Below, piece by piece: positions 13,661-51,969 of a DNA stretch of 64,000 nt. The notes under the pieces are model-generated. The model was given only the letters and a program-made list of their open reading frames with translations. It ran no database searches and was not told where the DNA came from. Each line of letters opens with the position of its first letter. Position 1 is the stretch's first letter. A program made the translations under genes and the position numbers. Origin of the DNA: a virus. Lineage: Duplodnaviria > Caudoviricetes. The DNA lies in the IMG/VR virus record IMGVR_UViG_3300011717_000032, positions 1-64,000 of that record; one strand, 5' to 3'.

Positions 13661-13873
13661 AGCTATTACAGAAGCTCTTCACTGAGGAGCTTCGATAATG
13701 GATATCCCCTCTGGCGGTTAAATCTTAAGTATCCTCTGTAGGGGATAGAGCATTGCAGCAGGCATTCACTGAGTGCCTGTGATAATGTCATCAGTGGCTA
13801 GGGTAGCTCCCGAAAAGCGGCATCGTCACCGCCTGCCATTGATAACCTGACGAGAAACTTAGACGAGGTTGTG

Positions 13874-36160: not shown

Positions 36161-36400
36161 ATGCCCCGCAAATCAGACATTCACAGCGCATTTGTCGCTG
36201 CAGTACAGCAAAACCCCAAGGGCTATCAGTGGTTACGCACTGATGACTTCATCCGGGAGTTGCGCGCCAGGAACTGGCATTTCACGCCGGACGACGCCAA
36301 TGAATGGATAGAGCGTTATCAGGAGTTCTTCGTCGACAAGACGCCGGAAGACAGCCAGAACCGTCTCTGGATGATGAGAAACATGGGGAGGGTCCTGTAA
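36161..36400 (+). CDS. SOS-controlled small hypothetical protein
   Basis: 79 aa, directly after the LexA box and AGGAG. Confidence 0.8.
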   Translation: MPRKSDIHSAFVAAVQQNPKGYQWLRTDDFIRELRARNWHFTPDDANEWIERYQEFFVDKTPEDSQNRLWMMRNMGRVL

Positions 36401-36717
36401 TGGGATTTCCCTCTCCAGCGGCGGATTACGTAGCCCCTCGTTTATCACCGGAAATTATCTGTGGCATAGGTATGGACAGTCGCATCCTGGAAACGTCATC
36501 CGGGTTTGCGGTGATCGAGCCGGTCACCCGACTGGTGCAGGGTCAGGTTCTGCTGATCCTCAGTGGCGGGCAGACCCAATTTGCTCGGTTTCTGGGAAAA
36601 GCATTAATCACAGAGGACGGCGAGGCGATAGAAGGCGACGCAGCGGAAGAGGTCGAAATCCTGGGCAGGGTGACTTTCTTTATCAATAGCACAGGCGCGG
36701 ATGATAGGCCGGTGTAA
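36400..36717 (+). CDS. Degenerate UmuD'-like protein
   Basis: Starts MGFPSPAADY; lacks the GDSM Ser and catalytic Lys motifs. Confidence 0.75.
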   Translation: MGFPSPAADYVAPRLSPEIICGIGMDSRILETSSGFAVIEPVTRLVQGQVLLILSGGQTQFARFLGKALITEDGEAIEGDAAEEVEILGRVTFFINSTGADDRPV

Positions 36718-36726
36718 AAATCCCAT

Positions 36727-36750
36727 AAAAAAGCCCGCATCAGCGGGCTT
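36727..36750. terminator. Intrinsic terminator, strongest on the - strand
   Basis: AAAAAAGCCCGC-atca-GCGGGCTT. Confidence 0.82.
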
Positions 36751-36878
36751 CTTATCACTCGGGAGCCGCGGCTCCTTTGCGTATCCTTTTTTGTCCTCTC
36801 ACCGTCTGGTCGGTGTCCTGCTGAGACTGCTAACTTCCTGTTATTGCTGGTGATGTCCTATCACCGTCCAATCATGAT
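36727..36878 (-). ncRNA. Candidate GGA-rich small RNA (CsrB/RsmZ-like architecture)
   Basis: Seven GGA motifs in 97 nt, two in hairpin loops, ending in a terminator. Confidence 0.5.
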
Positions 36879-36906
36879 TGGTGGAGCTGGCGGGAGTTGA
36901 ACCCGC
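36879..36906 (-). other. ssrA: 28-nt tmRNA 3'-end fragment (att-like)
   Basis: GCGGGTTCAACTCCCGCCAGCTCCACCA equals the enterobacterial ssrA 3' end; diverges immediately upstream. Confidence 0.85.
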
Positions 36907-36931
36907 CGCCACTGTGTAGATCCTGAAATGA

Positions 36932-37135
36932 CTACTGGAAGTAACCTTCCCATTCGTCAACCCAACCTTGAACCACTTGGTGCATGCTGGCGCGACCGTA
37001 TGTGAAAGAAGCAAAGTCTGGTTGCTGACGCATGTAGGCCTGGAAAAGAAGGCCTTTGGCTGGGTTGTTTTCGTGCCGCCCATCCCATTGGAGGTATAGG
37101 TCCCTACATCTGATTTTGGTTTCTTCTTTAGTCAT
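36932..37135 (-). CDS. Small hypothetical protein (67 aa)
   Basis: AAGGA RBS 8 nt before ATG 37135. Confidence 0.45.
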   Translation of the reverse strand: MTKEETKIRCRDLYLQWDGRHENNPAKGLLFQAYMRQQPDFASFTYGRASMHQVVQGWVDEWEGYFQ

Positions 37136-37304
37136 GTTGAAAATCCTTGCTACGCCTGGAAAGTGCCGAAAATCGGTTATCAAAACTGAGAAAAGGTTAC
37201 GACAAAACAGGACGTTAGGAAATCGTTGAAAGCATGAGAATTATTTGAGTTTTATAAAGAATTTCTTTTGATATCAATGAGCAATCCGCTTTCCCGGAAA
37301 CTAC

Positions 37305-37468
37305 TGCTGCGTCACATGGAGTGGTTCGAAGCCGCAGACCTGATCGTTAAAGGTATGGAAGGCGCGATTAACGCCAAAACCGTAACTTACGATTTCGAAC
37401 GTCTGATGGAAGGCGCTAAGCTGCTGAAATGTTCAGAGTTTGGTGACGCGATCATCGAAAACATGTAA
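37305..37468 (+). pseudogene. icd: 3' fragment of isocitrate dehydrogenase starting at the att core TGCTGCGTCACATGG
   Basis: [53 protein letters not shown] is the Icd C-terminus; upstream DNA is not icd. Confidence 0.93.
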
Positions 37469-37535
37469 TCCGGATTTCGGGTTATATGAAAACGGGAGCC
37501 TGATGGCTCCCGTTTTATTTACCCCTTCAGAATTC

Positions 37536-37570
37536 TTCCCCAAAATATTCCCCAAAACGCTTCCCCAAAA
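37536..37570 (+). repeat. Three TTCCCCAAAA direct repeats (integrase arm sites)
   Basis: Copies at 37536, 37548 and 37561, just past the int stop. Confidence 0.75.
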
Positions 37571-37581
37571 CTCTCCAGTGT

Positions 37582-38724
37582 TCACCCAGTTTTTGAATCG
37601 ATAACTACCCAATCTTTACCTCTGTCATCATTATATTGATCAGTTTGTTTACGAGATTTATGACCCAATAATTTCTGCGTGTCTATGCCCTGATCCCTGT
37701 ATAAACGCTCAGACAGAGAACGTTGTTCATGGAAGGTTGGGGCGGTTCCTTTTTCCCATTCAATTCCGCAGTTGTTTCTGGCCTTTTTAAAGGTTGTGGT
37801 CAAGCTGCTCGATGAGACGCAATCACCTCTTGTGGACTGCGAGGTAGAGTGCCGGAAATGAACAAGATATTTGCTCACTACAGCATCACGACATTTAGAA
37901 ACAACATCTCTTAAGGATATCCCCAATACATCACATCTCAGAGTCAAAGGGATGGCTAAGCGAGATCCTGTTTTTTCTTGTTCTACATGAAGCATGTCGT
38001 CCCAAATATCGGAGAATTTCATTTTACAGATATCCCCCAACCGTTGACCCGTAACTAAAGCCAACAGCATGCCAGTTTGTAAATACGGTTGCTGATGCTC
38101 CGCAGCCTCATAAATTTTCATCCATTCATCAAATGATAATCGATGTCGGGTAACTTTATGTCTTGGTTGCCTGGTCGCCATCGCCGGGTTGTAGCCTGGC
38201 GGAACGTGCCCGGAATGTTGAGCCTCTTTGAAAACGTCAATTAATACCATGCGAACAACTTGAGCCATTCTGTTGTGACCTTCGCTCTTTATTGCATCAG
38301 TAATTTCAGAAATATCAAGAGTTGAAATATCTTTAAGGTGCTGCATTCCGCAATGCTCTCTAAACAAGCGCAATGGCTTATTTTTTTGCAGAAAAGAGTT
38401 TGGCCTTAATTCATTATTCTTTACTCTTTCCTCCTGAATTACAGTGTATTTATCAATCCATTCAGTAACGGTGATGTCTGTTCTTTTCCCCTTCATTCTA
38501 GCCAGTCGGTCATTAACACTGAGTATTTGCCGGGTACGCTGTTCGGCAATGATTGTGTTTGCCTCAGTTGCAACTTGTTTAGCTTCGGCCTCATCAGTAC
38601 CCAGGCTATGGAATCGACCAGATACAGGATGTTTATACTGCCAGTAAACCTTTCCTGTCCGCTTATCAAGCTTGCAGTAAAGATTTGGTATTGAGATTTT
38701 ATGAGTCCGCGGTCTAGCAGCCAT
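37582..38724 (-). CDS. int: Tyrosine integrase, phage 21/e14 IntE-like
   Basis: MAARPR N-terminus, VTGQRLGD, TFHEQRSL, LLGH...Y. Confidence 0.95.
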   Translation of the reverse strand: MAARPRTHKISIPNLYCKLDKRTGKVYWQYKHPVSGRFHSLGTDEAEAKQVATEANTIIAEQRTRQILSVNDRLARMKGKRTDITVTEWIDKYTVIQEERVKNNELRPNSFLQKNKPLRLFREHCGMQHLKDISTLDISEITDAIKSEGHNRMAQVVRMVLIDVFKEAQHSGHVPPGYNPAMATRQPRHKVTRHRLSFDEWMKIYEAAEHQQPYLQTGMLLALVTGQRLGDICKMKFSDIWDDMLHVEQEKTGSRLAIPLTLRCDVLGISLRDVVSKCRDAVVSKYLVHFRHSTSQSTRGDCVSSSSLTTTFKKARNNCGIEWEKGTAPTFHEQRSLSERLYRDQGIDTQKLLGHKSRKQTDQYNDDRGKDWVVIDSKTG

Positions 38725-51780: not shown

Positions 51781-51831
51781 ATTCTGGTAAGCTCGGGACG
51801 TTAAAGCGAACTGAGCAACAAAACAAAACAG

Positions 51832-51856
51832 AAACCCGCCATTGAGCGGGTTTTTT
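51832..51856 (+). terminator. tR'-like terminator
   Basis: AAACCCGC-cattga-GCGGGTTTTTT. Confidence 0.8.
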
Positions 51857-51969
51857 ATCTTCTAAGGTCACCTTCTGGTGGCCTTTTCTATTTCAGGCTC
51901 CCGGATACCCCCATCACAGGTCTTGTCGTTATTCATCCGGAGAGCCTGATCTCTACACATGGATCAACT

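Follow-up and report, generated by a model that had tools for sequence, protein, structure and literature searches.

A conserved GGA-rich tail of ssrA at a retained attachment half-site between tandem prophages, a putative CsrA-binding RNA

The closest described counterparts of the element considered here are regulatory RNAs that bind CsrA, RNAs made from the tails of stable-RNA operons, and structured elements at phage attachment (att) sites. The element occupies positions 36727-36906, on the minus strand, of a 64,000-nucleotide (nt) stretch of a virus record (Caudoviricetes; IMGVR_UViG_3300011717_000032, positions 1 to 64,000). This whole stretch is called the window below. The element consists of the last 28 nt of ssrA, the gene for transfer-messenger RNA (tmRNA), followed by a GGA-rich tail, the trailer, that ends in an intrinsic terminator. 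CsrB/CsrC of Escherichia coli and RsmX/Y/Z of Pseudomonas, small RNAs that sequester CsrA/RsmA, carry A(N)GGA motifs roughly every 20 nt, with some of them in short loops, and end in an intrinsic terminator. 3'ETS-leuZ (the RNA of Lalaouna et al. 2015) is said to be a regulatory RNA derived from the tail of a stable-RNA operon. For rrA, rrB and rrF, which lie downstream of rrn operons, PMC8144298 reports interaction with Hfq and CsrA in vitro. Lambda sib/tI is a structured, terminator-bearing element just beyond attP and downstream of int. Finally, the attP of phage LLS, phage phiNP, and the attR of CP4-57 in Escherichia coli K-12 (psaA) all have a copy of the ssrA 3' end that is followed directly by one and the same trailer and terminator.

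The trailer resembles CsrB/CsrC and RsmX/Y/Z in the spacing of its A(N)GGA motifs, in the placement of some of them in short loops and in its terminator, and it has CAGGACA-type words in common with CsrB. Unlike those RNAs, it has no sequence or structure homology to them, it has seven sites as opposed to 18-22 in that comparison, and no promoter of its own or UvrY/GacA control is evident. If the trailer is made, another RNA would carry it as its tail. Co-transcription behind a highly expressed stable RNA gene, with release by processing (proposed for the trailer), likens it to rrA/rrB/rrF and 3'ETS-leuZ. It differs from these in its tmRNA parent, in the lack of any sequence relation, and in travelling on phage att sites. 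Its position recalls lambda sib/tI, although no RNase III-type duplex is predicted in its fold and it is homologous to the host flank. With LLS, phiNP and the CP4-57 attR it has the ssrA 3' end, the trailer and the terminator in common. In contrast to these, the block in the window has no adjoining ssrA-type integrase and lies between tandem prophages, not at a prophage-chromosome junction. The attL of CP4-57 carries an unrelated tail, unlike the block in the window.

Origin of the ssrA tail and its carriage by phages

The 180 bases are almost certainly one half of an ssrA-type attachment site together with the native tail of ssrA. An earlier reading made from the letters alone (the sequence-only reading) had recognized the last 28 nt of tmRNA on the minus strand, and they are indeed identical to the E. 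coli ssrA 3' end at 28 of 28 positions. The identity runs through the CCA, as in the copied target-gene end of an att half, and the same feature is annotated as the attP of LLS. What is present is a gene fragment. Infernal gives a partial tmRNA at 36879-36963 with 20.8-25 bits (cut-off 47), which does not reach the 47-bit gathering score of the tmRNA family (Rfam RF00023), and ARAGORN finds no whole tmRNA or tRNA gene at the feature. The fragment lacks the tmRNA 5' acceptor strand, so the tRNA-like processing at CCA that had been proposed to release a discrete RNA cannot apply as written. After the CCA the whole trailer measures 152 nt (36727-36878, minus strand). It is closed by a hairpin with U6 (36728-36753), in agreement with the U-tailed terminator of the sequence-only reading. 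This is the natural ssrA terminator of the trailer family, and here it opposes the 3' end of a convergent UmuD-like gene.

The trailer itself is the native chromosomal 3' flank of ssrA and no phage invention. It is present in 4175 of 5426 complete E. coli genomes, and an annotated ssrA adjoins it in 35 of 60 evenly sampled E. coli matches. In E. coli AR436 it lies directly 3' of an annotated, intact ssrA. In UPEC132, which lacks an island at this place, the order is smpB-ssrA-trailer-glaH, and E. whittamii has the same downstream flank. An exact 31-mer from the trailer centre occurs in Escherichia, Klebsiella, Citrobacter and Leclercia species, and one Leclercia genome has a 98% identical copy directly after ssrA. 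BLAST of 401 genomes of the Enterobacteriaceae yielded about 30 long trailer matches at 72-94% identity. A covariance model of the ssrA 3' trailer built in this analysis (R1) added more diverged copies, located behind ssrA genes whose identity to that of E. coli is only 82-96%. The window copy is a full member of this family, scoring 183 bits with R1, with homology over its full length, hairpins HP1 and HP3 (Table 1) and the terminator; it is 72-98% identical to 34 homologues.

Two lesser matches to R1 were also recorded. One, the only further match in the window, lies at 51828-51935 on the minus strand (15.2 bits, E = 0.015) and is probably due to chance. The other, at L074:1471-1661 (G038, contig 9; 25.9 bits), is a diverged trailer-like sequence directly after an apparent tRNA 3' end, not after ssrA, which suggests that a trailer arm was carried to another integration site.

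In E. coli K-12 the arrangement is broken. CP4-57 gives ssrA an unrelated 85-nt tail, also ended by a terminator, and the family trailer is found 22 kb off, directly after the ssrA pseudogene psaA (b4645) at the CP4-57 attR, with 87% identity to the window copy. This K-12 copy (NC_000913.3 2777942-2778136) has ypjF on one side and the convergent ypjA on the other.

Phages whose integration site is ssrA copy the native trailer, which forms the far arm of their attP. In Escherichia phage LLS (PQ299149) the trailer stands at the annotated attP ("tmRNA pseudogene") with 91% identity. In Citrobacter phage phiNP it stands at the start of the record, which opens with the last 25 nt of ssrA, with 87% identity. 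Phage Ayreon has part of the block, with 3 GGA left. In a Leclercia genome, full-length ssrA, the trailer and an arm beginning with a UmuD-like gene are contiguous, and the same UmuD-like gene follows the trailer in the window. Hence the corresponding arm of the left prophage of the window derives from an ssrA-integrating phage, and its integrase module was exchanged at a later time. The sequence-only reading had taken the element for a CsrB mimic encoded or evolved by the phage. That part of it does not stand, since the element is a copy of the native chromosomal ssrA trailer that was carried in an attP and is now detached from ssrA in an icd-type prophage arm.

Fold, conservation and CsrA binding of the trailer

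The seven GGA motifs begin 10, 21, 41, 61, 83, 93 and 104 nt after the CCA (TCC on the plus strand at 36867, 36856, 36836, 36816, 36794, 36784 and 36773), exactly as the sequence-only reading had listed them. The two that it assigned to hairpin loops, at 36856 and 36836, are predicted to be unpaired with a probability of about 1.0, in loops of 5 nt (AGGAC and AGGAA). Four further GGA, which had likewise been read as single-stranded, are mostly so (probability of being unpaired 0.4-0.9); the seventh is considered below. The fold of the window trailer is more stable than that of shuffled sequences (z = -3.4). For its composition, the trailer has only a mild excess of GGA (7 versus 4.1-4.6 expected, P ~0.08-0.10) and a clear excess of AGGA (6 versus 1.3-1.8, P ~0.001-0.003). 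Among 152-nt segments across the 64 kb, 0.8% reach at least 7 GGA and 0.06% reach at least 6 AGGA.

An alignment of 35 non-identical copies indicates that the trailer family is a structured RNA under conservation, in which the GGA sites are phased. The 119-nt body aligns without insertions or deletions, and its length is 118-121 nt throughout. GGA is kept at +10 and +21 in 34 of 35 copies, at +93 and +104 in 31, and at +41 and +61 in 27-28. The loop of HP1 retains its GGA in 34 of the 35 homologues and a trailer body has on average 6.3 GGA, so the conservation of GGA loops among homologous trailers, which the sequence-only reading had required, is observed. HP1 and HP3 are supported by compensatory changes, both in RNAalifold and in an explicit count. 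Cells with a double change number 51, compared with 17 +/- 3 in shuffled alignments, and none of 500 shuffles reached 51. Paired cells amount to 86%, compared with 33-45% when the partners are slid. The GGA/RGAC words at +10, 21, 41, 61, 72, 83, 93 and 104 are phased at 10.4 nt (R = 0.96). Such phasing was reached by 9 of 20000 random sets (P ~5e-4), and by 1 of 20000 (~5e-5) when AGAC is included. It could reflect a constraint on one face of the DNA or a repeated module spaced for CsrA dimers.

Published data provide a direct connection with CsrA. In the E. coli K-12 crosslinking and immunoprecipitation sequencing (CLIP-seq) study of CsrA by Potts et al. 2017 (PMC5694010, Supplementary Data 1), peak_259 is listed as psaA', a non-coding RNA (ncRNA), on the plus strand at 2777942-2778098, with a log fold change (logFC) of 0.98 and an adjusted P value (padj) of 0.005. 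This peak covers the K-12 trailer copy on the sense strand, and its maximum lies 63 nt from the start of the peak, at the HP1 loop AAGGAC. Its enrichment equals or exceeds that of CsrB (logFC 0.48), CsrC (0.79) and Spot 42 (0.98) in the same table (PMC5694010), in which GadY has 1.9. The peak starts 30 nt upstream of psaA, indicating that some transcription enters the K-12 copy from the CP4-57 side. The sequence-only reading had pointed to existing CLIP-seq data as a check and had named a missing transcript, missing CsrA binding or unconserved GGA loops as findings that would speak against it. None of these findings was made: the homologue in K-12 is transcribed and is UV-crosslinked to CsrA in vivo, and the loop at the summit is conserved. 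The link between this peak and the trailer is new here; beyond the row in the supplementary table, a literature search found no paper that describes the trailer as a CsrA partner or a small RNA.

Taken with the fold and the conservation, these data make it probable that RNA of the trailer binds CsrA, while a physiologically meaningful titration of CsrA by the trailer is possible but doubtful. A putative role of the whole family as a CsrA decoy is plausible. The trailer may work like a CsrA-binding RNA, with multiple conserved A(N)GGA motifs of which several are in loops or single strands (7 GGA, 6 AGGA, 2 in loops), yet it is no member of the CsrB/CsrC/Rsm families. It shows no homology to the CsrB/CsrC/RsmXYZ models (RF00018, RF00084, clan CL00106). 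An Rfam scan of the element found no family at its gathering score and only a weak RsmY-like match, over the full length of the model (18.4 bits, cut-off 57, E = 0.019). An rsmX match of 18.6 bits (cut-off 56) is on the opposite strand, and the CsrB and CsrC models gave no match at E <= 10.

We lean towards a composite explanation, in which a retained ssrA att half and the native tail behind it give an RNA that acts as a minor decoy by binding CsrA. The ssrA-integrating phages carry the block in the far arm of attP, so that upon integration the tmRNA gene regains its usual 3' end together with tail and terminator. In strains with the trailer next to ssrA, it would be co-transcribed with tmRNA up to the terminator and removed during 3' maturation of tmRNA, and the released tail would then bind CsrA. 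The window copy is cut off from the ssrA promoter. At most it would be transcribed as the 3' untranslated region and terminator of a small open reading frame (ORF) upstream, or by read-through from the integrase gene. In the window, a mosaic prophage has kept one half of an old attachment site; the feature is not a regulator designed by a phage.

tmRNA is one of the most heavily transcribed RNAs, and a more far-reaching version of the decoy idea may be put forward tentatively, as one that we would not expect to hold. In this version, the tmRNA tail is a CsrA-binding 3' external transcribed spacer, made stoichiometrically with tmRNA in about half of E. coli and in many other enterics, which soaks up CsrA and couples the synthesis of the ribosome-rescue RNA to the Csr network. 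Mobile elements at ssrA would either preserve the link by bringing their own copy (the LLS and phiNP type) or sever it by putting an unrelated tail in place of the original, which ends up tens of kilobases away (CP4-57 in K-12, islands in O157). If the tail does titrate CsrA, it would be a CsrA antagonist with a new route of biogenesis, a tmRNA 3' spacer, and would link the capacity for trans-translation to the control of carbon storage, motility and biofilm formation. Integration of prophages and islands into ssrA would silently rewire CsrA titration. K-12 cannot show this regulatory effect because CP4-57 has displaced the tail there, and the broken arrangement in the standard laboratory strain would account for its having been missed so far. 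The same premise would explain why unrelated ssrA-integrating phages have kept about 150 extra bases beyond the att core.

Several observations weigh against the composite explanation. The seventh GGA, at 36773, is buried in the GGAGC/GCUCC stem (probability of being unpaired 0.01), so the single-stranded state that had been proposed for it does not hold. GGA at +41, +61 and +83 is missing in some homologues, for example as AAAAC in K-12, and GAC is invariant (35 of 35) at +72 and +83, where GGA is not. The conserved feature is therefore not simply a CsrA motif. The 10.4-nt phasing looks like the helical repeat of DNA and has no established explanation in RNA. Counts of G-U against A-C pairs (24 versus 43 overall, about 8 versus 5 in the covarying pairs) do not discriminate which strand is selected. 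The CLIP enrichment is modest, about 2-fold, hundreds of RNAs have CLIP peaks, and the main text of the study gives nine as the number of ncRNAs with peaks and never discusses the psaA' peak (PMC5694010). A consensus scan found no promoter-like (sigma-70-like) site in 36200-37700. In addition, K-12 tmRNA matures normally with the unrelated tail supplied by CP4-57, from which it follows that the family trailer is dispensable for tmRNA function.

Other explanations for the element

A rather unlikely alternative is that the trailer is a passenger or a processing signal. It would be a region for RNase cleavage followed by a terminator, which would shield prophage genes or other genes downstream from the very strong promoter of ssrA, and the GGA motifs and the CLIP peak would have no regulatory effect. 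No part of the trailer is more conserved than the terminator, which also dominates its thermodynamics; the different tail of CP4-57 ends in a terminator too, and CLIP yields peaks by the hundred. For Streptococcus pyogenes M1UK, PMC9951164 reports phenotypic effects of transcription that passes the ssrA terminator and enters a prophage toxin gene. Against this stand the 119 nt that precede the terminator, whose constant length, 72-98% identity across genera and covarying hairpins go far beyond the needs of a terminator. The excess of AGGA and the position of the CLIP summit exactly on a conserved loop also argue for more than a passenger. The phasing invites a different, improbable explanation at the level of DNA, with RNA binding as a secondary matter: RGAC(A) words placed every 10.4 bp on one helix face could be sites for a recombination accessory protein or a host DNA-binding protein in the P' arm. 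The strength of the phasing, the better conservation of GAC than GGA at two sites, the 119 nt free of indels, the location directly beside the att core and the trailer-like copy after a tRNA 3' end (L074) are in line with it. The different elements with this trailer have unrelated P arms in which the motif is absent, however, and one of them has arm repeats of its own (ATGGTGAAA, three copies, 11-bp spacing). The trailer is also kept beside ssrA in genomes without an island, and both the compensatory changes in the hairpins and the crosslinking of CsrA to the sense strand point to RNA. Reading the GGAC repeats as arm-type sites of an integrase was rejected as a general explanation, as the P arms of seven trailer-sharing elements are unrelated and without the word.

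The proposal that started this work, a phage-encoded CsrB mimic expressed by the prophage to retune carbon metabolism, motility or biofilm formation of the host, or its own CsrA-controlled genes, is now quite improbable. The window copy is intact with its seven GGA, a family member binds CsrA in K-12 by CLIP-seq, and in a comparison with a related Leclercia prophage the block reaches 97-100% identity (100% in the terminator), as against 77-86% for the flanks. The small ORF is as conserved as the trailer block in that comparison, so the high identity may reflect one recent mosaic block. The sequence is derived from the host and equally conserved in the chromosomal copies, the promoter scan was negative, the copy in the second prophage of the record appears to have decayed, Ayreon retains only some of the GGA, and relatives of the small ORF occur without a trailer. 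Least probable, with only a slender chance of being correct, is an element like sib/tI, in which hairpins and terminator lie across attP downstream of int in the circular phage and would end, and possibly retro-regulate, int transcripts. The order int, att core, small ORF, trailer and terminator at the junction here and in LLS fits such an element. After integration, however, the host flank that replaces the trailer is a homologous trailer, so for ssrA-type phages the integrated and free states are alike, which defeats the logic of sib. A long duplex of the RNase III type is also not predicted.

Prophage surroundings of the element

Two lambdoid prophages are present in the 78-kb provirus record; they are collinear, with 72-88% identity over the lysis, head and tail modules. 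Prophage A extends over window positions 1-36906, and prophage B from 36907 to 64000 and on to record position 77336 (L065:13336). The features around the junction are listed in Table 1. The integrase region of prophage B resembles the int-xis-icd modules of phages ev017, ev207 and D2. The 29-nt icd core recurs at L065:13308-13336 (about 77.3 kb of the record), roughly 1 kb from the right end of the record, where it adjoins a displaced icd 3' end with an internal deletion. The icd core, icd 3' end and integrase at 37302-38724, together with the recurring core, show that both prophages are in tandem at icd. The last 1 kb or so of the "provirus" record is probably host DNA.

Table 1. Features of the element and its neighbourhood in window coordinates
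Feature	Position	Strand	Basis
UmuD-like gene of prophage A, convergent with the trailer	36304..36717	+	PHROG 3469, E = 4e-44
Intrinsic terminator, 11-bp stem including A/U pairs, loop UGAU, U6	36728..36753	-	fold; compensatory changes in alignment A2
Trailer body with seven GGA and four hairpins	36754..36878	-	72-98% identity to ssrA-abutting enterobacterial sequence
Hairpin HP4, stem GGAGC/GCUCC	36762-36775	-	fold
Hairpin HP3, loop ACCAGA	36800-36815	-	covaries
Hairpin HP2, loop AGGAA	36831-36843	-	fold
Hairpin HP1, loop AGGAC	36849-36865	-	covaries
ssrA 3' end (T-arm, 3' acceptor strand, CCA), copy of ssrA-type att core, "tmRNA pseudogene"	36879..36906	-	identical 28/28 to E. coli ssrA 336-363
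Degenerate tmRNA-like stretch 5' of the core, overlapping the end of the small ORF	36907..36963	-	cmscan tmRNA match reaches 36963; ssrA alignment partial
Small ORF, 67 amino acids from ATG, directly upstream, same orientation	36932..37135	-	conserved hypothetical; trailer would be its 3' untranslated region
icd att core (37302-37330) and phage-borne icd 3' end, prophage B	37302..37470	+	blastn to icd and integrase in E. coli; translation is the Icd C-terminus
Integrase of prophage B, lambda-type and icd-type, convergent with the icd fragment	37582..38724	-	Pfam Arm-DNA-bind_1, Phage_integrase; PHROG 7244

The ssrA fragment and trailer lie within the distal arm of prophage A, the left one, and some 400 bp separate them from the icd core. 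A stack of two prophages in ssrA was considered and rejected, as the adjacent integrase brings an icd core and icd 3' end and this core recurs at the right end of the record. The adjacent integrase is not one that uses the ssrA core, there is no second ssrA core to bound a prophage, and the 78-kb record holds a single ssrA core with trailer. With no matching integrase and no second core, the element is a retained or fossil half-site. At the equivalent place, prophage B has only an apparently decayed remnant of the trailer block. Outside the window, L065:12960-12985 (about 76.97 kb) is a short stretch like a decayed ssrA 3' end (GACTCCGCC..CACC) with a small terminator, to all appearance what erosion has left of the same att half in prophage B.

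The small ORF at 36932-37135 has a good Shine-Dalgarno sequence and matches no Pfam or PHROG family. Homologues with 70-99% identity occur in Citrobacter, Klebsiella (Klebsiella aerogenes) and Serratia. The Citrobacter homologue lies at the end of a prophage, with a host SRAP (yedK-like) gene on one side and an S24-peptidase/DinI arm on the other, and has no trailer. The idea that the small ORF is tied to the trailer was rejected because the Citrobacter and Serratia homologues have no trailer behind them.

At 36867-36881 on the minus strand, the terminal CCA of the tmRNA fragment sits within a perfect 14-nt palindrome, CCAATCATGATTGG, through which the CCA end of a precursor could pair with the first GGA region. 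The palindrome is retained in most trailer copies and is absent from the most diverged ones. Elsewhere in the window, an int-alpA RNA (RF02996) at 13791-13855 on the plus strand, inside prophage A, is the sole Rfam match above its gathering score (44.9 bits).

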